Part shown: positions 1,177 to 28,344 of the stretch, in pieces | Layout: each line of letters opens with the position of its first letter | Position numbering within the stretch: the first letter of the stretch is position 1 | Assembly: GCA_965197465.1 (NCBI GenBank) | Contig: OZ240209.1 | Span: 3,965,174 to 4,029,173, forward strand | Length of the DNA: 64,000 bases | Source: Candidatus Poribacteria bacterium | GTDB taxonomy: Bacteria; Poribacteria; WGA-4E; JAJDTR01 | Direction of reading: 5' to 3' | Position numbers and translations under genes: made by a program | Notes under the pieces: generated by a model | Database searches by the model: none | Told to the model about the DNA's origin: nothing | The model's input: only the letters and a program-made list of their open reading frames with translations

Positions 1177-1184
1177 GCGTCCAA

Positions 1185-1215
1185 GAAACCGAGTTTCTTA
1201 AAAAACTCGGTTTCT
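1185..1215 (+). promoter_or_regulatory. Perfect 11-bp-arm palindrome GAAACCGAGTT-N8-AACTCGGTTTC between cas7 and cas5. A second copy lies at 4527-4558 just upstream of the cas1 RBS.
   Basis: Both arms are identical at the two sites. No U-tract follows, so it looks more like a dimeric-regulator operator or RNA processing hairpin than an intrinsic terminator. A half-site recurs at 28054-28064. Confidence 0.4.
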
Positions 1216-1242: not shown

Positions 1243-1998
1243 ATGGCAAACACAATTCGGCTTTATGAACATGGTGTGCGCGTGTTCGCGGGACGACTGT
1301 ACAACCACGATTACCTTTGGTTCTCATCCAACGAAATCAGCAAGGTTTCGATAACCCAACCCGTCCTGCACAATTACGCACTCTGTTATGCAATCTCGCA
1401 GCGCTCCTACGGGGCTTATCTCGGTTCAACGCCAAAGTATGTTGAAGATCCGGATGGTGAATTCAATGCGATGCCGCTCTACGCAACGCCGGCGCACGCG
1501 GACCATCCCGAGCACATATCGCGCACGACCATCACTTTCAATGCCGTTGATTCACGTACACTGACAACGGGTGATAGCAAAACAATGAATACCCCGAATT
1601 TGGGTAAACGAGTCTACATTGATCCTGTGTGGGAACCAATGGCGATAGAACGTCCGGAAAAAGGCTATCAATTCTACGTTTTCACATTCGACAGCTATCG
1701 CCCACTAGGGGTAACACGGCTTGGTAAGAAAGGGGCTTCAATGCGCATTCGGTGGGAAGAAGTACCTCAACCTATTGCGTTCTTCCGTGAAGGCGAACAA
1801 AGCCCAACACACCCAATTAACCCTTTGGATATCAACGGACATCTCGTCAGCTACGATCCCGTGATGATTCCGCCACATCTATTGTTTCGGACAGCAACGC
1901 TTACCGAAGATTGGTGGCTATTCTTTAGTGCCGGCAGAGCCCGGCATACCATACACCTCCCCAAACGTGTTTTGAACCGAATTGGAGGGGTATCATGA
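1243..1998 (+). CDS. cas5: Cas5-family subunit (Csc1/Cas5-like)
   Basis: 251 aa, directly after cas7, with GAGGTGA RBS at 1231-1237. Its stop overlaps the cas3' start (ATGA at 1995-1998). Size and position match Cas5. Sequence is only weakly diagnostic by eye. Confidence 0.5.
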   Translation: MANTIRLYEHGVRVFAGRLYNHDYLWFSSNEISKVSITQPVLHNYALCYAISQRSYGAYLGSTPKYVEDPDGEFNAMPLYATPAHADHPEHISRTTITFNAVDSRTLTTGDSKTMNTPNLGKRVYIDPVWEPMAIERPEKGYQFYVFTFDSYRPLGVTRLGKKGASMRIRWEEVPQPIAFFREGEQSPTHPINPLDINGHLVSYDPVMIPPHLLFRTATLTEDWWLFFSAGRARHTIHLPKRVLNRIGGVS

Positions 1999-4019
1999 GA
2001 ATCCAGGGCTACTCTTATGAACAAGTCACTGTAGAAGATGTGCAAACCCATCTTTATCCACATCAAGCCGCCATGTACAACGAATGGTCCAATCACACCG
2101 GATTCCTACTCGTGACCAAAACAGGGAGTGGCAAAACACGGGCGACAGCGTTACCCGTACTGAAAAACCATGAATCTGCTGTTTTTGTCTACCCCACAAA
2201 CGCGCTGATTCAAAATCAATCACGGGCTATTCAGCAATTGATGGATGACGAGGGAATAACATATCGGGCGCGGACGCCGGAAACAGCAAACGAAAGGGTG
2301 GGAACTGAAGAATATGAAATCGTTCAAATTAGCTCCCTGACGCTCGCAGCATTTGCAAAGGCGTGGAGAATGGGTGAAAAGCAAAAAGGGGACGCATTGA
2401 TAAAACTAATTGGTCAAGAGAAACGTAAAATTGTATTGATTAACCCCGATATTCTTTATCTTCTGTACTCTTTGCGCTACCGTGGCAGTCCAGAAGTTTT
2501 GTCACATTTTCAAGCATATAAGACCATTGTATTTGACGAATTTCATCTCTACAACGGAGTTGAACTAGCCCACGCGCTTTTCCTCATTTTTTGGGCACAA
2601 CGTATGGGTGCATTCCAACGGGTTGTGTTGCTCTCTGCCACTCCGAATGAAGAGGTCAAAACCTATCTAGATCGACTGCTCAGCCCACTTGTCATTGATG
2701 CTGATGTAACAGTCCCACAACCTATCTGTGGCGAGCGCACGGTCGCCCATGATGTAGAACTCAATGCCTTGCCGGTTGCTCGGGATGTCGTCGAAACAGC
2801 ACAATCAAAGGTCCTTGAACTTCAGAGCAAACTATACCAACTCCAAGCAGAAAACCAAGAAGCAAGCAACACAGAAGATTATGTGCCTTGTGTCGTTATC
2901 CTCAATTCGGTCGTCAACGCCATCGCGCTGGAAGACGCTCTCGTTGAGGCGGGGATACCACGTACAGAAATCGCACCAATTCGCGGGCTTTCAGCACGGA
3001 GTAGTCGAGACGTGAGAGGCAGGATGCTTGTCATCGGTACCGCGGCAATCGAAGTTGGAATCGACTTCAAAACTGACTATCTGATTTTTGAGGCGGGCAA
3101 CCACGCATCGTTCATACAGCGATTTGGACGGCTTGGAAGACATAGCATCGGACAGGCGTTCCTACTCGCTACTCCGCGTGAATGTGAAGCGGTAAAATCA
3201 CTTGGAAATGATATTTCCCGGGACGCTCTAGAGGAGGGTGTCAAAACCATCTATCCCGGACAGGATGCGAAGGGATGGTTTGTTGATACGCTTTGCGGGG
3301 CGTTTACGATACTCGCCCAAGCCGAGAACTTTCGCAGTAGGATTATCGACGATTGGTCTGCTGATGAAACGGTGAAAACTGAAATTGAAACATGGCTAGA
3401 TGCTGCTCTGACAGACTATGCAACAAAGATGCGTCTAACTCAGATGAAACGTGCTCGCTTGAAACTTCGACGTAATCCCACGTGGTTTGAACATTACAAA
3501 GCATTGGACTCATTTCGGACATCGTTACCAAGCATTGAAGTTTGGGATGCACGCGAAAAATTTGAACGCGGGCGAGAACCGTACTACACCGTAGATTTGA
3601 AAACACTTTTAACACGTACGACGGTTCACTGGTCCGAAAAGTATCAGCGAATGGAAGTGAAAAAAGGCTACGATAAATGGCATCAGGTTAATCTGCTAAA
3701 GTCGTTTGATGATGAACATGAGGATGAATGTTGTGGCATGTTTCGGACAACTGCTGATTATCCGAACGGAGAGATGCAATTCATGCAAGAAGGTCATTTG
3801 ACATCGGTCTCACATGTGATGGCAAAACAGAAGTACAAAGAACGTGTTACCGGCCATCTGTTTGTTCTCGCACCGGAAGATTTACGCTACTACTTGGACT
3901 GGCGACTAGCGTGGTTTAGATGCGGATCGCGTGGGAAATTCATCATTGCATTTGATGGGGACGCGCTTTTACTGAAAGCAATCTACGATCGAACAGTGAA
4001 AATGAGAGACGGTACGTAA
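1995..4019 (+). CDS. cas3: Cas3' superfamily-2 helicase, helicase-only with no HD nuclease domain
   Basis: Walker A TKTGSGKTRA sits near the N-terminus, so there is no room for an N-terminal HD. DExH box is VFDEFH. Motif VI is QRFGRLGR. 674 aa. Confidence 0.85.
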   Translation: MRIQGYSYEQVTVEDVQTHLYPHQAAMYNEWSNHTGFLLVTKTGSGKTRATALPVLKNHESAVFVYPTNALIQNQSRAIQQLMDDEGITYRARTPETANERVGTEEYEIVQISSLTLAAFAKAWRMGEKQKGDALIKLIGQEKRKIVLINPDILYLLYSLRYRGSPEVLSHFQAYKTIVFDEFHLYNGVELAHALFLIFWAQRMGAFQRVVLLSATPNEEVKTYLDRLLSPLVIDADVTVPQPICGERTVAHDVELNALPVARDVVETAQSKVLELQSKLYQLQAENQEASNTEDYVPCVVILNSVVNAIALEDALVEAGIPRTEIAPIRGLSARSSRDVRGRMLVIGTAAIEVGIDFKTDYLIFEAGNHASFIQRFGRLGRHSIGQAFLLATPRECEAVKSLGNDISRDALEEGVKTIYPGQDAKGWFVDTLCGAFTILAQAENFRSRIIDDWSADETVKTEIETWLDAALTDYATKMRLTQMKRARLKLRRNPTWFEHYKALDSFRTSLPSIEVWDAREKFERGREPYYTVDLKTLLTRTTVHWSEKYQRMEVKKGYDKWHQVNLLKSFDDEHEDECCGMFRTTADYPNGEMQFMQEGHLTSVSHVMAKQKYKERVTGHLFVLAPEDLRYYLDWRLAWFRCGSRGKFIIAFDGDALLLKAIYDRTVKMRDGT

Positions 4020-4049
4020 ACGTCCAATGAACTTTGACTGATTCACCTC

Positions 4050-4373
4050 CTAACGCTGCGCTTCCATATACGCACGCAAAACGGCGTTCATGCCGGTCTC
4101 GTCGCCTTGGCCGTGGGAGTTGAACCACACGAGCACGTAGCTATCGACGCGAAGCGAGATGGCGTGTTTGGGTTGGGGTATCACGACGTGGGCATCTTTC
4201 CAGAATGCTTCATCGGTGGGTTGGGCGTCGGGGTCCGCTGCCGCTGCCGCATCAATCTCTGCCTCGGTCATAGTCGCGACCTGCTCCCAATCTGTTTGTG
4301 TGTCTTTCGGGAGGTTATCAAGCGAAAATCTCACGGTATGTTCTTCCTTCACGGCGGTTTGCCTTGTCGCCAA
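4050..4373 (-). CDS. BrnA-family (COG3514) type II antitoxin-like protein with no cognate BrnT, encoded antisense inside the cas operon
   Basis: The C-terminal half matches the BrnA signature: TDWEQVATMTEAEIDAAAAADPDAQPTDEAFW...ISLRVDSYVLVWFNSHGQGDETGMNAVLRAYMEA. Start is TTG. No RelE/BrnT-like ORF is found in any frame within the 150 nt upstream. Confidence 0.6.
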   Translation of the reverse strand: MATRQTAVKEEHTVRFSLDNLPKDTQTDWEQVATMTEAEIDAAAAADPDAQPTDEAFWKDAHVVIPQPKHAISLRVDSYVLVWFNSHGQGDETGMNAVLRAYMEAQR

Positions 4374-4526
4374 GGTAGATTATTTGGGGGTCCTCTGAAT
4401 CAACCTTTATCTCGGAGAGGACTTCACTGTAGGAGCGATCTCCAGGTCGCGATTCCCTACTAAAGTATACCTGAAATTCAAGGCTCACGCAAGAATTTAG
4501 ACTACCCCGTATAGTTATCTCTTAAA

Positions 4527-4558
4527 GAAACCGAGTTTTGGGGAAAAAACTCGGTTTC
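4527..4558 (+). promoter_or_regulatory. Second copy of the GAAACCGAGTT/AACTCGGTTTC palindrome, between the brnA-like gene and cas1
   Basis: Same arms as at 1185-1215. The spacer is TTGGGGAAAA. It ends 23 nt before the cas1 RBS. Confidence 0.4.
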
Positions 4559-4592
4559 GTTGAACGTCCGTTACTCTTGCAGGAGGAAGAAA

Positions 4593-5696
4593 ATGAACCA
4601 ACTCACCATCTCCGACTACGGCACATCTCTCGGCAAACGCTCGGAGCGCGTCAGCGTGCGATACCGCGGGGTGGAGCGGGAGAAGGAGGAGCACGCCCTC
4701 ATGGATCTGGATCAGATTGTCATCGCTTCGCGCGGGGTTAGTCTGTCGTCGGATTTGATTGAGGCGTGCACCGAACGCGGGATCGAAATCTCGTTTCTCA
4801 GCTTCAGCGGCAAACCGTATGCGAAACTCAACAGCCCTTCGTTGACGGCGACGGTCATTTCTCGGCGCGAGCAACTCGCCGCGTACCACGATGAGCGCGG
4901 GGTAGAGATTGCCAAACGGTTCGCGGCGGGTAAGTTACGGAATCAGATAAACCTGGTACGCTATTTCGGCAAGTACCGCAAGAAAAGCGCACCCAAGAGA
5001 TACGATGAACTGACGGAGCGGGTTACCAAGATTGAGGGACTGATGGACGATATTCAGGCTCTCCAAGCGCCAAACGTTGAATGGAACGGAGAATCGCCGA
5101 TTGATGCCGTCCGTACCACCTTGCTCAACTTAGAGGGCCGCGCCGGGGCGCTCTACTGGGAGTGCGTGCAACGGCTGCTGCCCGCCGGGCGATTCACGAC
5201 GCGGAATCATCAGGGCGCGACGGATGATGTCAACGCACTGCTCAACTACGGCTACGGGATGCTCTACTCTCAGGTCTGGAGCGCGCTCGGGCTGGCTGGA
5301 CTGGAACCGTTTGCGGGTTTTCTGCACGTCGATCGCCCGGGCAAACCGTCGCTGGTGTTGGATTTTATCGAGGAGTTCCGTCAGCCGATTGTTGACCGGG
5401 TCGTGTTTGCGATGATTAACAAGAAATTCAAGGTCGAGTGGGAGGAGCCGGATGACGACGCCGCCAAATCCGCGCACCAGTCCGCAAACGCGGAGGCAGA
5501 CGTGGGTACGCAACGCTATCTGAGCAAAAGCACGCGGCGCGCGTTTGCCGATCGGGTGCTGGAGCGCCTTCAGGAGACGGAGCGGTTCGAACGCAAAGAC
5601 CAGAAGTTGTGCAACATCATCCAGATTCAAGCGCGTCATCTGGCGATGTTCCTGCGCCGCGAACGGGATTATCAGCCATTTGTCTCTAGTTGGTGA
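4593..5696 (+). CDS. cas1: Cas1 integrase
   Basis: Cas1 hallmark NALLNYGYGMLYSQVWSALGLAGLEPFAGFLH...SLVLDFIEEFRQPIVD. AGGAGGA RBS at 4581-4587. The ATG at 4593 is preferred over the upstream start in the track. Confidence 0.9.
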   Translation: MNQLTISDYGTSLGKRSERVSVRYRGVEREKEEHALMDLDQIVIASRGVSLSSDLIEACTERGIEISFLSFSGKPYAKLNSPSLTATVISRREQLAAYHDERGVEIAKRFAAGKLRNQINLVRYFGKYRKKSAPKRYDELTERVTKIEGLMDDIQALQAPNVEWNGESPIDAVRTTLLNLEGRAGALYWECVQRLLPAGRFTTRNHQGATDDVNALLNYGYGMLYSQVWSALGLAGLEPFAGFLHVDRPGKPSLVLDFIEEFRQPIVDRVVFAMINKKFKVEWEEPDDDAAKSAHQSANAEADVGTQRYLSKSTRRAFADRVLERLQETERFERKDQKLCNIIQIQARHLAMFLRRERDYQPFVSSW

Positions 5697-5773
5697 ATTG
5701 ACATGCACACCTACGTCATTTACCTTCAAACGCCCGTAGGAGGGGCATCTTGCCCCGAGTTTCCACAATTGAC

Positions 5774-6025
5774 ATGCACACATACGTGATTTACGACATC
5801 GTCGAAGACCGAATCCGCAAGAAGATCGCCGATGTCTGCCTCGACTACGGCTTGAAGCGCATCCAATACAGCGCCTACTTGGGGGATATCAACACCACGC
5901 GGCGGCGGGCGTTGGATGCAAAACTAACGCAGGAATTTGGCGAAGCGGAGGGAAAGATTGAAGTCCTCTCCGTGTGTGCGAAAGATTTCGACCAACGCAC
6001 CATTATCGGGGATGCTGAAAGATGA
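5774..6025 (+). CDS. cas2: Cas2
   Basis: 83 aa. MHTYVIYDIVEDRIRKKIADVCLDYGLKRIQYSAYL matches the Cas2 N-terminal beta1-alpha1 pattern. Its stop overlaps the cas4 ATG (ATGA). Confidence 0.75.
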   Translation: MHTYVIYDIVEDRIRKKIADVCLDYGLKRIQYSAYLGDINTTRRRALDAKLTQEFGEAEGKIEVLSVCAKDFDQRTIIGDAER

Positions 6026-6594
6026 ATATACGGGTCAGCGACATCAAACAGTACTTCTACTGTCCGCGGGTGGTCTACCACACCTACTTCACGCCGGTGC
6101 ACCGTCCGACGACGCACCCGATGCAGCTCGGCGCTGTTGAACACGAAGTGTTAAGTGTCCTTGAACGCCGTCGAACCCTTGCCCGCTACGGACTTGAGGC
6201 TGGCAGTCGCAAGTTCCATGTCTCACTCCACGCCCCGGATCTCGGATTAACTGGCGTGCTCGACCTGCTTATTGAAACCGAAACTGGCGCGTTTCCCGTC
6301 GAGTTCAAGAGCACGAGACAACGGCTGGACCTGAACGCAAAGTGCCAGTTGACAGCATACGCGATGATGGTGGAGGAGTGCCTGGGTGTCGCCGTGACTC
6401 AAGGGTTTATCTACCGGATTCCCACGGAACGAATCACGCCGGTAACGATTTCAGAGTCGCTCCGCGAGAAAACGCGGAACGCTCTCCGGGACATCCGACG
6501 AATGTTGTCGGACGAGTGGATGCCTCCGCCGACTCCGCAGCGCGGGAAATGCGTCGAATGCGAATTTCGGCGATTCTGCGCGGATGTGTTGTGA
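6022..6594 (+). CDS. cas4: Cas4 RecB-like nuclease with a 4-Cys Fe-S cluster
   Basis: N-terminal YCPRVVYH Cys plus C-terminal C-x2-C-x5-C (CVECEFRRFC). Nuclease motif LDLLIETETGAFPVEFKST (D-x-E-x-K). It is adjacent to the array leader. Confidence 0.85.
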   Translation: MNIRVSDIKQYFYCPRVVYHTYFTPVHRPTTHPMQLGAVEHEVLSVLERRRTLARYGLEAGSRKFHVSLHAPDLGLTGVLDLLIETETGAFPVEFKSTRQRLDLNAKCQLTAYAMMVEECLGVAVTQGFIYRIPTERITPVTISESLREKTRNALRDIRRMLSDEWMPPPTPQRGKCVECEFRRFCADVL

Positions 6595-7011: not shown

Positions 7012-10000
7012 GTAGCAGTGAGTGCCGCGATGAAAAGCGGACTGAAAGCGCTCCACTGTCTCACCCCTCCGAAACCTCAACCAGTAGCAGTGAGTGCCGC
7101 GATGAAAAGCGGACTGAAAGCCTATGTACCCACCGCCACATAACGTAGTCCTCGCGTAGCAGTGAGTGCCGCGATGAAAAGCGGACTGAAAGCCGTCTCT
7201 CGGTTCATTAAATCTTCGGCATGGGTCAGTAGCAGTGAGTGCCGCGATGAAAAGCGGACTGAAAGTCACTAACAAGTCTTCGTTGAAACAACCGTTGAGA
7301 GTAGCAGTGAGTGCCGCGATGAAAAGCGGACTGAAAGAACTCACCGAAACACGGGACATCTATGTTGAAGTTGTAGCAGTGAGTGCCGCGATGAAAAGCG
7401 GACTGAAAGAGATGTCACGTCTGGTATGGACGTGGGAATGATATAGTAGCAGTGAGTGCCGCGATGAAAAGCGGACTGAAAGCGGACGCATTTCGTGCAT
7501 TCGTACAACAACGTCATGTAGCAGTGAGTGCCGCGATGAAAAGCGGACTGAAAGACGCCCACCGACCTCGCCGTTGAGATTAGCCAGAAAGTAGCAGTGA
7601 GTGCCGCGATGAAAAGCGGACTGAAAGTTAACCAGAACCGCCTAGGCGACGCCCGCGCAGAGTAGCAGTGAGTGCCGCGATGAAAAGCGGACTGAAAGTC
7701 CGAGCAACGACACACCGGACACTCAAATCCTATTGTAGCAGTGAGTGCCGCGATGAAAAGCGGACTGAAAGAGAAAACGATAATCATTACAACATCGCCG
7801 TTTTTAGTAGCAGTGAGTGCCGCGATGAAAAGCGGACTGAAAGAGTTTTCAAAAGCAATTAACTCCACATCCAGCGGCCTAGTAGCAGTGAGTGCCGCGA
7901 TGAAAAGCGGACTGAAAGTCTGACCGAACCGCAGCGCAACCTGTTTCGGACTGTAGCAGTGAGTGCCGCGATGAAAAGCGGACTGAAAGTGGCGCATGTT
8001 GAAAGCCGGCTACCGAACACGATTACGTAGCAGTGAGTGCCGCGATGAAAAGCGGACTGAAAGGTTGGCGTCCATACCGCCCATAATAGCCCCAATCTAA
8101 GTAGCAGTGAGTGCCGCGATGAAAAGCGGACTGAAAGCGCCCAGCGCTTCGGCGTCCACACCGGTTTGCAGTAGTAGCAGTGAGTGCCGCGATGAAAAGC
8201 GGACTGAAAGTCCGTGCCCCCGGCTGACCATGACACACCGGCGGCGTAGCAGTGAGTGCCGCGATGAAAAGCGGACTGAAAGGAGGATAAATCGAAACTG
8301 GAGGATAAGGCATATAAAGTAGCAGTGAGTGCCGCGATGAAAAGCGGACTGAAAGGCGCGCGCCGCCAAAACAGTGCCGCTGCGTTAATGTAGCAGTGAG
8401 TGCCGCGATGAAAAGCGGACTGAAAGGCTATACCAACTGATCCGCAGTTGGTTGAATCAGGGTAGCAGTGAGTGCCGCGATGAAAAGCGGACTGAAAGCG
8501 TCTACATGGATATCGGCAAGGATTACACGGGTTGTAGCAGTGAGTGCCGCGATGAAAAGCGGACTGAAAGCTAGGCTGTTGAACCCGTTCTTTTCCTCTC
8601 CACCGTAGCAGTGAGTGCCGCGATGAAAAGCGGACTGAAAGATCAACCAATCGACACTGACCGCCATCTACAGCGCGGGTAGCAGTGAGTGCCGCGATGA
8701 AAAGCGGACTGAAAGATTTCCGCGCGAGACGCCTTCATCTCTTTCAGCACTGTAGCAGTGAGTGCCGCGATGAAAAGCGGACTGAAAGCTTCTATGCTTG
8801 TCGTATAACCGTTTCCGTAGCTATGGTAGCAGTGAGTGCCGCGATGAAAAGCGGACTGAAAGCCCTCCGGGTCGTCCGGGTCGGCAATGCCGCCGTAGTA
8901 GCAGTGAGTGCCGCGATGAAAAGCGGACTGAAAGACTCGCCAGTGTGTTCATGCGGCAATCCAAGGCATGGTAGCAGTGAGTGCCGCGATGAAAAGCGGA
9001 CTGAAAGCCGTCTATAGATTAGCGAGCAGCTCCTCGAGGAAACGACCGGTAGCAGTGAGTGCCGCGATGAAAAGCGGACTGAAAGTTCTACAACACGAGT
9101 CCTGACACTTCGCTGATTTGCGTAGCAGTGAGTGCCGCGATGAAAAGCGGACTGAAAGACCCCGTCGGGGGGATTCACCGAGACGCGTTACGCGGAGTAG
9201 CAGTGAGTGCCGCGATGAAAAGCGGACTGAAAGGCGGTCACGCGCATTCAGATATGTTCTCACTTCGGTGTAGCAGTGAGTGCCGCGATGAAAAGCGGAC
9301 TGAAAGGCGTGTTGAATCCACTGTCAATCCCGATGCCGGAGTAGCAGTGAGTGCCGCGATGAAAAGCGGACTGAAAGATGCAGCTTGGGCATGTGCAGAC
9401 CCAGGAGTTCAGGTAGCAGTGAGTGCCGCGATGAAAAGCGGACTGAAAGACGAATACAGTATACAGGAGAGGGGCTTCAAGCACGTGTAGCAGTGAGTGC
9501 CGCGATGAAAAGCGGACTGAAAGCCGAGCTAGTTACAGTTGCCGATCAGATGAGTGCCATGTAGCAGTGAGTGCCGCGATGAAAAGCGGACTGAAAGCCT
9601 AAATGTCACACCCTCAGAAGTTTGTCTTGGTAGGTAGCAGTGAGTGCCGCGATGAAAAGCGGACTGAAAGTCCATCATCGTAGCCTTTAACCGATACTAC
9701 CCCGCTGTAGCAGTGAGTGCCGCGATGAAAAGCGGACTGAAAGTAATTCCTGTATGTCTTGATTCATTCTATCTCCCTAGTAGCAGTGAGTGCCGCGATG
9801 AAAAGCGGACTGAAAGTGCTACGAATATCATGTGCTATTCCTTTGGCATTTAGTAGCAGTGAGTGCCGCGATGAAAAGCGGACTGAAAGTAAAGTATATG
9901 TGAACATACCGCCTACATACATTGTAGCAGTGAGTGCCGCGATGAAAAGCGGACTGAAAGGTCGAAGTGCGCTGGGGAGTCATCGCCAAGTTTACCGTAG

Positions 10001-10844
10001 CAGTGAGTGCCGCGATGAAAAGCGGACTGAAAGGTAGGCAAAGTACCTGTGGTAACAGTGTAAGCCGAAGTAGCAGTGAGTGCCGCGATGAAAAGCGGAC
10101 TGAAAGCACGCCCATTCCTTGCTTGAAGCGCACTTGTCTTGGGTAGCAGTGAGTGCCGCGATGAAAAGCGGACTGAAAGAGTTATGACGCCGCTTGAAAC
10201 GGACACTGGCATGGTGTAGCAGTGAGTGCCGCGATGAAAAGCGGACTGAAAGTTTGTTACAAACTTACTAGACGATTTATGATGGTCTATGTAGCAGTGA
10301 GTGCCGCGATGAAAAGCGGACTGAAAGACAATCGCACGAAGTAACACGGCTTTAGTTTGTCGTAGCAGTGAGTGCCGCGATGAAAAGCGGACTGAAAGGT
10401 TTTCTTGTAATGAGAATTGGGGTAGATTTCAGAGTAGCAGTGAGTGCCGCGATGAAAAGCGGACTGAAAGATGTGGCACGAGTTTATATTCATGCAGACC
10501 GGACGGATGGTAGCAGTGAGTGCCGCGATGAAAAGCGGACTGAAAGATGTGGCACGAGTTTATATTCATGCAGACCGGACGGATGGTAGCAGTGAGTGCC
10601 GCGATGAAAAGCGGACTGAAAGTCTATGTACAAAATCTGGGCACGAGTGCATAACCAGTAGCAGTGAGTGCCGCGATGAAAAGCGGACTGAAAGATGTGG
10701 CACGAGTTTATATTCATGCAGACCGGACGGATGGTAGCAGTGAGTGCCGCGATGAAAAGCGGACTGAAAGGATAAGCGGCAAAACGGTGAACATCAATGA
10801 GGGCAGGGTAGCAACCATTGCCCCGATGAAAAGGATCAAGGGAG
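7012..10844 (+). CRISPR. CRISPR array of 52 identical 37-nt repeats plus one degenerate terminal repeat at 10808-10844. Spacers are 34-41 nt.
   Basis: All repeat starts were enumerated by hand, from the first at 7012 to the last at 10734. The repeat contains a CCGC/GCGG stem with GATGAAAA loop and an ACTGAAAG 3' handle, like Cas6-processed I-D/III-type repeats. Spacers at 10471-10509, 10547-10585 and 10695-10733 are identical. Confidence 0.97.
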
Positions 10845-11215: not shown

Positions 11216-14020
11216 ATGCGAACAATACGAATACTACTCACCATATTCCTTCTTGCCCCCCTCCCCGTCTTCGCCGCTATCACAGTCGTCGACGACCAGT
11301 TGCACGTCGACACGGCAGCCTACACCGTTCTATTCGACCGCGGCACCATCACTCAACTCCATAACAAGCGCACCGGCGAAACCCACACTCTCGCCCCCGG
11401 CGCCAACCCGAATCCGGGGTTTAGTAAGCAGACTGCCATCGTAGGCCGGGGTAATATCAAAGATTGGTCGCCCCGTTGGGATGCCGACATACAGATAAAC
11501 AAAATTACTGACCACCACGCTGACATTGTATTTCGAAAGGGCGGGAACGCGATAACACTGTCAATCGGCATCGACCCCGCCAACAACGACCTGCTTATCG
11601 GAGGACAGGCTGTATCCGCGATACCCGGCGTTATTGGTATCCAATGGTCTGTCGAAAACCTTGATCTCCATAACCTTAGCCTCATCATCCCATCTCAAGG
11701 GATACAACAAATCGACGCCTCCTCCGCTATCGAACACCGCAACTTTCCATATCCCGACACATTCCGCTGGGAAGCGCAGCTTGCTATTATAGAATCCCAA
11801 CTCGGCGGGTTCTACGTCCGAGGCACCGATACAACCTTCCGATTCAAAGAACTAAATTATCAGCGCGACGATACCAGTTTCGGGCTCGTGTTCAAAACCA
11901 TAAATCAAGCGCCGTGGGATAGCCTCACATCAGCCAAGTCCGTCACCTGGCGCCTCAATACCTACGTTGGAGAGTGGTGCGTTCCCGCTCAAATACACCG
12001 CGACTGGATGGAACAGGCGTTTAACCCCTGGCGTCTTAGCGACGTACCGGCGTGGGTCAGTGATATCGGCTTGGTCGTTTTCCTCACGAAACTGGATACG
12101 GAACAGCTGAACGCGGTGGAAGCCTTGGCACAGCACGTTGAACCGACGCAAACGCTTTTCTATCTGACAGATTGGCGCAAATACGAGAACGATATCATGC
12201 ACCCGGATTTTACCGCCATTCACCATAATTTTGAAACGTTTCTCGAGGTCGCTCGGCGGTACGGATACCGGATTATGCTGCACGTTAACCTTCATAACTG
12301 CTCGCCGACCCATCCGCTCTATGCGGAATTCAAGCAATACCAAATACGACATCCCAACGGCGAACTGTCCGGCTGGAGATGGGACGATATTGATCATCCG
12401 GACCGGAATGCGCACATCAGTCTCGGCAGTTCGCGTTGGCGCAACCTGCTTATCCGACAATTCAAGGCGCTAAGGGACAAATACGCCATAGACGCCTTTC
12501 ATCTTGATGTGAGCCACTACATCGTCAACGACGGCAACGGTTTGGTCGAAGGTCTTACCAGCGCCGAAGCGAGCGTGCTGATGCACCGGCAGTTGATGGA
12601 AGCCATGCCGGGCGTGGTGCTTGCCGGTGAACACCTCCACGAAGTCACGTTTTTCCGCGAAAGTATCGCACAACGCAATTTATCGGAGCATGCCACACAC
12701 CCGCTCAGCGCCTTCCTCTTTGCCCCGTACACCCGGTTTATGGGGCATCTTGGATTTCCGCGTGAACACAATCCCCAGCGCCTCCGATACGCGATCCAAT
12801 TTTACGAACGTCAAGGTACTCTACCGACCGCGCGAATATCGAACGAAAGCCTATTACACCAACCGATCACCCGGGACATACTCGCTGTTGCACGCCAGTG
12901 GCAAGCGTTGAAGTTGACGCCTGATATCCACTGCCATTGGTGCGAAAATACCCTATTCCAATATACCACGGACAACGGCGAGAGTGTGACCTACCAAAAG
13001 GTCGACGGCGTATATTCACTCAATATACCCGACGGTAACGGATACCGGCGAGTGCATGGCGTCACCCAAGCCGCTACCCGGTGGAGCCTCCCCGAATGGC
13101 GCGCGTACAATGAAGAGATGCTTCTCGGTCTGGATCCGAACAAATACTATTCGCTCCGCAATGCGCCGCGCGATGTCTCCCAATTACACATTAACGCGCT
13201 TTCCCCGGGTGTTTACGTGGCAGAGACCCGCGTAACACCGCAAGCCGCCGTCTTTCGACTCGAGTCGACCTCCGGGGTTAGAGACACCTCTGTAGATATG
13301 TTCCTTCCAATGCCGCCGCTTGCAAGTGTTCCAAAGACACTTGTCTCCGTAGCCGGCAATCACTACCGTATCGACACAAATCTATCCCGACCTATCGTAA
13401 TCATACTCGCCGCGCCGCGCATTCGCCTGCCCTATAATTTAAGAGACTATCCGTTTATCGCCGGATTGCAACAGAGCGGTATCTTCCGAGTCGGAAGCCA
13501 CCACGGATCCGGCGAACGTATGACAGCGACCCTTGATGGTATCCATAAAGAGACCATCTTTGCCCACCCGCCTAAAACTGACAAAACAATTCTCCAATTC
13601 GTGTTTACGCTGCCCGAATCGCCGTCAACCCTTTCATACTCGATGGGGTTAGCCGGAGAACACAGCAAGGGCGTTCTGTTTGAAATCCGCCTTAACGGCC
13701 AGACGCACGTTAACTTCTTGAAGGATACCTTCGACTGGACGGACGGCAGTATCTCGCTTGACGAATTTGCGGGCGAACCCGTACTATTGGAATTTGTGAC
13801 AGACCCTGGGGACAGCTCGGACTACGATTGGGCGCATTGGGGGGATTTGATCATTACCGCTGACACGAATCCAGCCGATGTAAACGGGGACGGCATTGTC
13901 AACATCCTCGATTTGACGCTTGTGGCTCAAGCGTTCGGAATGAGTAGTGCGGCGGCTGACGTGAACGGTGACGGCGTCGTGAACGTTTTCGATTTGGTTT
14001 TTGTGGCGAACGCTTTTTAG
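11216..14020 (+). CDS. Secreted 934-aa putative glycoside-hydrolase-like protein with a C-terminal type-I dockerin
   Basis: Signal peptide ILLTIFLLAPLPVFAA. The C-terminus has two dockerin repeats DVNGDGIVNILDLTLVAQAFG / DVNGDGVVNVFDLVFVANAF. AAGGAGA RBS. Confidence 0.7.
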   Translation: MRTIRILLTIFLLAPLPVFAAITVVDDQLHVDTAAYTVLFDRGTITQLHNKRTGETHTLAPGANPNPGFSKQTAIVGRGNIKDWSPRWDADIQINKITDHHADIVFRKGGNAITLSIGIDPANNDLLIGGQAVSAIPGVIGIQWSVENLDLHNLSLIIPSQGIQQIDASSAIEHRNFPYPDTFRWEAQLAIIESQLGGFYVRGTDTTFRFKELNYQRDDTSFGLVFKTINQAPWDSLTSAKSVTWRLNTYVGEWCVPAQIHRDWMEQAFNPWRLSDVPAWVSDIGLVVFLTKLDTEQLNAVEALAQHVEPTQTLFYLTDWRKYENDIMHPDFTAIHHNFETFLEVARRYGYRIMLHVNLHNCSPTHPLYAEFKQYQIRHPNGELSGWRWDDIDHPDRNAHISLGSSRWRNLLIRQFKALRDKYAIDAFHLDVSHYIVNDGNGLVEGLTSAEASVLMHRQLMEAMPGVVLAGEHLHEVTFFRESIAQRNLSEHATHPLSAFLFAPYTRFMGHLGFPREHNPQRLRYAIQFYERQGTLPTARISNESLLHQPITRDILAVARQWQALKLTPDIHCHWCENTLFQYTTDNGESVTYQKVDGVYSLNIPDGNGYRRVHGVTQAATRWSLPEWRAYNEEMLLGLDPNKYYSLRNAPRDVSQLHINALSPGVYVAETRVTPQAAVFRLESTSGVRDTSVDMFLPMPPLASVPKTLVSVAGNHYRIDTNLSRPIVIILAAPRIRLPYNLRDYPFIAGLQQSGIFRVGSHHGSGERMTATLDGIHKETIFAHPPKTDKTILQFVFTLPESPSTLSYSMGLAGEHSKGVLFEIRLNGQTHVNFLKDTFDWTDGSISLDEFAGEPVLLEFVTDPGDSSDYDWAHWGDLIITADTNPADVNGDGIVNILDLTLVAQAFGMSSAAADVNGDGVVNVFDLVFVANAF

Positions 14021-27833: not shown

Positions 27834-28344
27834 AATTTTTACCTTTCCCGTTTCTTGTCTTCATCATGCGCCTGTTTGCCGCATAATCGCTCATGATTAC
27901 CATTCGTCTAAGAGCCTGTTTGAATGATAGGTGGCAAAGTCATGTTTGGTCATTTGGGAAGTGGATTTTTCGTGTATTTGTTATTGCCTGCTATATACCT
28001 TGAAGATCTCATCTTCGATTTGATGATTTAAGAAAAATCCCTTTTCAAGAAAAAACTCGGTTTCAGGGCAAACGGGGTTACTACTAATCGGTTTTCAATC
28101 AGGCTCTAAATGGTAGTTGCCCTTATCTCGTTTGGCTCGATACGCCCCATAGCCAAAGGTGTCGATTCTCTGGATCTTTATCTTTGAATCTTTCGACCTC
28201 AATATGTCGTTCTTATCCCAAGGATACTTGGTAAAGAAATCTTGCCTAGCCCCACAGCGAGTAATGGGGTAGAATGAGTTAAGAAAATGATAATTCAGCC
28301 ACACACGATTAGCTGCACGAAGATATTGCAGAGGGAGGGGGAAT

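Follow-up and report, generated by a model that had tools for sequence, protein, structure and literature searches.

What is an antitoxin gene without a toxin doing between cas3' and cas1 of a CRISPR-Cas locus, antisense to both? The gene lies in DNA of a Candidatus Poribacteria bacterium, of which a stretch of 64 kb (hereafter the window) was analysed. The first-pass annotation, made from the letters of that stretch, had offered three explanations for it: an antitoxin co-opted as a regulator of cas expression, an addiction module that stabilises the locus, or a decayed insertion. On comparing the site with related loci, we consider it likely, though well short of certain, that the gene is an inherited toxin-antitoxin relic in decay. 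It is not a fresh insertion, and it is probably not a cas regulator.

A BrnA antitoxin gene lies within a type I-D cas locus

The first 10.8 kb of the window form a type I-D CRISPR-Cas locus on the + strand, identified with Pfam, NCBIfam equivalogs and TRF, with one gene on the opposite strand:

223-1176, + strand: csc2/cas7d (TIGR03157, 99.7 bits, above cutoff)
1243-1998, + strand: csc1/cas5d (TIGR03159, 79.1 bits, above cutoff)
1995-4019, + strand: type I-D cas3', helicase only, without an HD nuclease domain (Pfam DEAD and Cas3-like_C_2; TIGR03158 cas3_cyano, 163.6 bits, cutoff 69.1)
4050-4373, - strand: brnA, maximal open reading frame (TTG start at 4373, 107 aa, PF14384 match)
4593-5696, + strand: cas1, 367 aa, ATG at 4593, divergent from brnA and first gene of the adaptation module
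5750-6025, + strand: cas2
6022-6594, + strand: cas4
7012-10770: CRISPR array with 37-nt repeats (TRF)

The Csc2, Csc1 and Cas3' equivalogs, together with Cas1-Cas2-Cas4 and the array, assign the locus to type I-D, with Cas10d expected upstream of the window. The flanking cas genes are all on the + strand, and the antisense gene, whose TAG stop codon (4050-4052) lies 30 nt from the convergent stop of cas3', does interrupt an otherwise codirectional row, as first described. Its product matches the Pfam model PF14384 (BrnA_antitoxin) with 35.7 bits (E = 1.1e-8) against a gathering cutoff of 26.1, which places it in the family, and it has 471 database homologs with E-values down to 1e-45, named BrnA/DUF4415 at their source. 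The two motifs by which it had been recognised as BrnA-like, DPDAQPTDEAFW and NAVLRAYMEA, occupy columns that the family keeps invariant or nearly so. The identification of a BrnA-like antitoxin gene at this position therefore stands, and the proposed PF14384 search of the 107-aa product returns a significant match. None of the NCBIfam models matches the protein.

The likely start of brnA is a GTG at 4352 (100 aa), orthologous to the MKEE... start of its relatives; the public annotation of the gene, P0001, starts at 4334, codon 14 (94 aa). In an AF2 model of the protein (pLDDT 76), an extended segment (residues 70-76) precedes two helices (78-87 and 92-106) joined by a loop (88-91), a predicted C-terminal layout that is ribbon-helix-helix (RHH)-like. 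A sequence search of the PDB with a BrnA profile found no solved relative, and a Foldseek search of the PDB with the AF2 monomer gave no meaningful match.

The toxin gene is reduced to a 15-codon stub

The first-pass annotation had found no BrnT partner in the flank of brnA and had named a missed intact BrnT frame as the observation that would overturn this. None of the minus-strand frames of 4300-4600 is open for a protein of BrnT size. A tblastn search of the whole 64-kb window with the BrnT of an intact relative found no brnT gene; its sole match is a 15-residue stub at 4321-4365 (E = 0.009), in which KANRREGRTYREIFA aligns with RANRRERRTYREGFS. The toxin gene is thus absent, as claimed. 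The flank that had been described as lacking BrnT does not lack its traces: part of it derives from brnT, and the rest comes from a different toxin-antitoxin cassette. Between brnA and cas1 we distinguish the following:

4318-4365, - strand: 3' stub of brnT, last 15 codons plus stop (tblastn; DNA homology to L001, L085 and L089 ends at ~4361-4363)
4364-4378, - strand: junction that links the brnT stub to the X region, of uncertain origin
4379-4523, - strand: X region, non-coding (82-88% identical to the sequence preceding a 93-aa DUF433-like gene in L094 and L096; ~99% to L095)
4524-4558: REP-like palindrome GAAACCGAGTTTT-6-AAAACTCGGTTTC, 35 nt upstream of the cas1 ATG (RNA fold -20.1 kcal/mol, z = -3.6)

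The stub corresponds to the stretch of brnT that, in intact operons, overlaps the start of brnA or adjoins it, and everything 5' of about codon 76 of brnT has been deleted. In every comparison with brnT operons, DNA homology runs from the brnA stop codon to ~4361-4363 and then ends. Two features of a BrnTA module are accordingly missing: there is no cognate PF04365 gene upstream of brnA and overlapping it, and no own promoter with a palindromic operator of the kind that stands upstream of brnT. The palindrome of the brnT operons, TGTATATACA, is absent from the brnA region of the window, and the Shine-Dalgarno sequence of brnA, which falls in the junction, is weakened (GACAAGG vs AAGGAGG in L001). 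Because the toxin is absent, an addiction module is excluded in the window, and the suggestion that one stabilises this locus does not apply.

Homology to the sequence that precedes the DUF433-like gene in L094 and L096 spans window positions 4379-4548 at 82-88% identity; relative to L094 and L095, the X region carries a 34-nt deletion between 4440 and 4441. On the brnA strand it contains a promoter-like site, read by eye (TTGCGT at 4487-4492, 17 nt, TATACT at 4464-4469), that is conserved in L094, L095 and L096; its -35 element has 3 of 6 consensus matches, and its -10 element is TATAAT in L094. A scan of 3800-4800 for sigma-70 consensus promoters and terminators found nothing, and Rfam searches of the whole window and of 3900-4700 at E <= 1 found no RNA family. 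From the promoter-like site, brnA may be weakly transcribed.

The same flank holds a candidate for a toxin that has escaped recognition, a 56-aa open reading frame (4318-4488, - strand) that occupies the toxin position and overlaps the start of brnA. We rejected it. The frame has no Pfam match, the brnT stub accounts for its last 15 residues, and the remainder is, in L094, non-coding sequence upstream of another gene; moreover, the 34-nt indel in L094 and L095 breaks the frame, which is therefore not conserved. That brnA still belongs to a functional pair with a toxin of this sort is extremely improbable.

Relatives carry the pair intact or with frameshifted, replaced or lost toxins

The closest homologs of the window brnA are found in Candidatus Poribacteria assemblies, some of them from reef-sponge metagenomes. 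In L001/L005 and L002-L004, an intact 91-aa brnT (97.8 bits to PF04365) overlaps brnA by 38 nt, and the pair is divergent from cas1-cas2-cas4; Cas1, Cas2 and Cas4 of these loci are 91-92%, 86-89% and 93% identical to those of the window. The synteny comparison that the first-pass annotation had proposed thus finds an intact brnT-brnA pair at the same place. Directly before the brnT ATG stands a TTGACA-17-TATACT promoter that holds the palindrome and is conserved in L001, L003, L006 and L086-L093. BrnTA is multi-copy in Poribacteria assemblies, and two loci of this clade, L006 and L007, lie away from cas genes. In L001 and L096, brnA is followed by a 259-260-aa open reading frame similar to a 261-aa one in L003.

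Elsewhere in the group the toxin is damaged. Eight contigs from three samples (L086-L093) carry A6 instead of A5 about 20 nt after the brnT ATG (e.g. L089 ~5783), so that translation yields a 12-aa peptide (M-E-F-E-W-D-L-I-K-K-P-A-stop) while the remaining 84 codons stay open in another frame. These are long-read assemblies, and the frameshift could mean that the gene was inactivated recently, that the poly-A tract is a slippage-prone switch, or that it was misassembled. In L085, L094 and L096, brnT has been replaced. The 93-aa gene downstream of X in L094 and L096 has a weak resemblance to DUF433 (E = 0.04, short of the cutoff); this DUF433-like gene is paired in L003 and L085 with a DUF5615/PIN-like gene, and brnA follows directly. 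The regions with DUF433-like (93 aa) and DUF5615-PIN-like (122 aa) sequence beside brnA copies are:

L003, 5599-7434
L085, 5400-6336
L094/L096, 5717-6303

The second brnA of L003 is split into N- and C-terminal fragments by the 261-aa open reading frame, which has no Pfam match.

The nearest sister of the window is L095, whose Cas1, Cas2 and Cas4 are 99%, 95% and 100% identical to those of the window and whose X region, brnT stub and 5' part of brnA are almost identical. A 70-nt internal deletion in its brnA removes the RHH strand, helix 1 and the conserved motif, leaving a 64-aa stub that shares the N-terminal 58 residues with the window protein and is out of frame thereafter. Several database homologs of BrnA are likewise frameshifted or truncated. 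One orthologous site beside cas1 therefore presents, side by side, an intact pair, a frameshifted toxin, a replaced toxin, an orphan antitoxin with a damaged motif and a truncated antitoxin.

The window BrnA is damaged at its predicted DNA-contact end

The window protein scores ~35 bits against PF14384, compared with 66-69 bits for seven relatives that are ~75% identical to it. Four of its residues (D79Y, Y91D, Q92E and R94G) depart from columns in which at least 90% of 50 homologs agree, and K86N is a further change. The conserved motif G-x-G-Y-Q-T-R-[MI]-N and the conserved D79 are consequently missing; the window has GQGDETGMN and Y79. On the AF2 model, Y91D, Q92E and R94G map to the loop and to the N-terminal end of the final helix, and D79Y to the beginning of the helix before it. 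In RHH proteins the loop and that end of the final helix touch the DNA backbone; here, the three changes introduce two acidic residues and cost the protein an arginine. Because the substitutions lie at the predicted DNA-contact end of the RHH domain, we infer that DNA binding has probably been lost. The three motif changes are clustered within 15 nt and could reflect a single event rather than steady decay.

Codon comparisons point the same way. Across the core codons of the window and L094 genes, both of which lack brnT, 19 non-synonymous and 12 synonymous differences (31 in all, a small count) give a pN/pS of 0.45; by comparison, the similarly close pairs L001-L003 and L089-L006 have ratios of 5:18 (pN/pS 0.08, Fisher p = 0.006) and 5:25 (pN/pS 0.06, Fisher p = 0.0006), and the contrast with older, more divergent, saturated pairs is not significant (p = 0.06-0.18). 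A parsimony split of the changes between the window and L094 branches (8N:4S vs 15N:5S) is likewise not significant and uninformative. Selection on the window brnA appears to be relaxed. Several observations run counter to decay: the frame is still intact over 100-107 codons, the pN/pS between the window and L094 is 0.45 rather than 1, and the promoter-like site upstream is shared with L094, L095 and L096.

The N-terminal two-thirds of the protein, the presumed toxin contact, also speak against decay in that they keep all near-invariant residues (T27, D28, W29, D47, D49, F57, W58 and others). With the damage confined to the RHH domain and the frame open, with BrnTA present in several copies in Poribacteria assemblies, and with L006 and L007 away from cas genes, the protein might serve as a solitary antitoxin that neutralises BrnT in trans without binding DNA, the toxin coming from brnTA paralogs or incoming mobile elements in other parts of the 6.6-Mb genome (anti-addiction). 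We regard this as unlikely. Antitoxin stability normally depends on RHH dimerisation; the break in frame after residue 58 in L095 means that the full-length protein is not conserved in the lineage. Further, no BrnT is encoded in the 64-kb window, and 0 of the 120 closest BrnT clusters list the contig that bears P0001 as their longest contig, a weak heuristic.

Linkage to cas1 reflects a single ancestral event

In all sampled cas-linked loci (at least 12), brnA is divergent from cas1, whichever of three effector sets lies opposite:

L090, L092, L093: type I-D, as in the window
L091, L094-L096: cas3(HD)-cas8-like-DevR cas7-cas5
L001, L085-L089: a third set, with a 792-aa Cas3

Blocks of homology between the loci stop precisely at the brnA stop codon (window 4019-4052 vs L095 ~8240, L094 ~6305 and L092 ~6600). 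The I-D effector genes of the window are closest to those of L092 and L093, and its adaptation module is nearly identical to that of L095. The break in homology at the brnA stop codon identifies that point as a recombination seam. The 3' end of brnA thus marks the seam between adaptation and effector modules, which helps to reconstruct CRISPR module shuffling in sponge-associated bacteria.

So constant a position, immediately divergent from cas1 across three effector types and with the homology blocks closing at the brnA stop, is what one might expect if BrnA had been kept to repress or activate the adaptation module, the GDETG variant being a retuned DNA specificity. In L089, moreover, only ~40 nt separate the brnT promoter from the cas1 ATG, and autoregulation could there spill over to cas1. 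Were BrnA to regulate cas1-2-4, spacer acquisition would have gained a new accessory regulator; the evidence points the other way. All sampled cas-linked loci share one homologous cas1-2-4 block (Cas1 82-99% identical), and the linkage of brnA to cas1 therefore counts as a single ancestral event rather than a repeated independent association. L095 retains cas1-2-4 with a broken brnA, which argues against an essential role of brnA in cas regulation. The operator palindrome of the family is absent from the window, the changes at the predicted DNA-contact end replace a basic with acidic character where RHH proteins touch the backbone, and pN/pS is raised. Among BrnA loci outside the Poribacteria cas1-cas2-cas4 group, 1 of 149 has cas genes resembling those of the window at a distance of a few kb, and most have a BrnT partner. 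We therefore judge the co-opted regulator proposed by the first-pass annotation to be quite unlikely. A broader version, in which a brnT-brnA or brnA-only cassette is a functional accessory of the Poribacteria cas1-cas2-cas4 module, a divergent regulator or guardian that moves with it across type I-D, I-C-like and third type I effector sets, and in which the GDETG BrnA of the window is a toxin-independent regulator of altered DNA specificity, we hold to be very unlikely. Most likely, the window brnA does nothing essential for the cas operon.

The one exception outside the group, L113 7001-14302 (JGI contig Ga0073928_10000616), encodes a distant BrnA that is 48% identical, ~3 kb upstream of a csc2-like gene; a cas1 on the same strand, also 48% identical, is ~6.5 kb away. 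A genome scan brought up only three Poribacteria loci, a metagenome scan returned only distant BrnA (<=58% identity) and no further X-type loci, and a literature search found no paper describing brnTA inside cas loci.

A proposed order of events

Read as a relic, the antisense gene requires neither a cas regulator nor an addiction module. The following order of losses is inferred from comparison of the loci. The ancestor would have carried a brnT-brnA type II operon upstream of cas1 and divergent from it, where the effector genes meet cas1-cas2-cas4. In a first step, brnT would have been truncated and a DUF433-like/DUF5615 pair placed upstream of brnA, an arrangement that L085 and the second copy of L003 still show. 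The simplest arrangement before further loss would read cas1 <- | X -> DUF433-like -> DUF5615 -> (brnT stub) brnA. In a second step, the window lineage would have deleted the DUF433-like/DUF5615 pair, fusing X to the 15-codon brnT stub and brnA; in L094 and L096, DUF5615 and the first ~16 codons of brnA would have been deleted instead. In a third step, brnA, left with neither toxin nor operator of its own, would have come under relaxed selection and acquired the substitutions that reverse charge where the RHH domain is predicted to contact DNA. Of the original suggestion of a decayed insertion, the decay holds (brnT, promoter and family residues are lost); the insertion does not, since brnA was not inserted here and is an inherited neighbour of cas1-cas2-cas4.

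Relation to known toxin-antitoxin systems

Solitary antitoxins and decaying chromosomal toxin-antitoxin loci exist, and CreTA-type modules guard cas genes. Clustering of toxin-antitoxin systems with CRISPR loci is already known in general, an example being the CRISPR plasmid pSYSA of Synechocystis 6803, which carries nine toxin-antitoxin modules and also a type I-D system (PMC4963859). The window resembles pSYSA in having toxin-antitoxin genes in or beside a type I-D locus, and stabilisation of the locus is a plausible original role. Unlike modules that cluster with or guard CRISPR loci, the pair here is a protein type II system, is defunct in the window and gives no sign of a regulatory or guarding link to Cas.

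Stand-alone toxin-antitoxin components have been listed for Synechocystis (PMC4963859). As with solitary antitoxins, the loss began with the toxin, which was deleted, frameshifted or replaced according to lineage, and the antitoxin persists for a while and then accumulates damage; unlike other solitary antitoxins, several stages of decay lie side by side at one orthologous position beside cas1.

Autoregulation by the BrnT2-BrnA2 complex has been reported (2012, J Biol Chem, PMC3320955; summarised in PMC5086665). The window protein belongs to the same antitoxin Pfam family, PF14384. In the Poribacteria relatives the toxin gene comes first and overlaps the antitoxin gene, and a promoter that contains a palindrome stands just before the pair, an arrangement consistent with the reported autoregulation. 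The window departs from the system described there in having no BrnT, native promoter or operator; its GYQTR reads GDETG, and its Pfam score is half that of close relatives.

Palindromes, transposases and other features of the locus

The hairpin at 4524-4558 is a dispersed intergenic REP-like element and not part of brnA. Further copies of the ~35-nt perfect palindrome occur in the window (1183-1215 and ~28049-28064), in L085 (3363-3398 and 4000-4034), in L089 and in L092, and copies flank Y1_Tnp genes in L085, L089 and L092. Together, palindrome and Y1_Tnp look like a REP element with a RAYT-type (REP-associated tyrosine) transposase. In L085, the Y1_Tnp gene flanked by palindromes is IS200-like and has inserted between cas1 and cas2. 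In L086-L088 and L091-L093, cas1 is a 58-aa fragment beside a Y1_Tnp gene and cas2 was not called; the transposase disrupts the adaptation module itself in these relatives.

At the far end of the CRISPR array, the last 4-5 units (10434-10770) repeat the same ~39-nt spacer, ATGTGGCACGAGTTTATATTCATGCAGACCGGACGGATG, with a 76-nt period, and the repeated peptide is visible in the open reading frame translations too. Beyond the array, at 11216-14020 (+ strand), lies a 934-aa open reading frame with, as read from its translation only, a signal-peptide-like N-terminus and two terminal DVNGDG(I/V)VN..DL repeats that resemble dockerin repeats.
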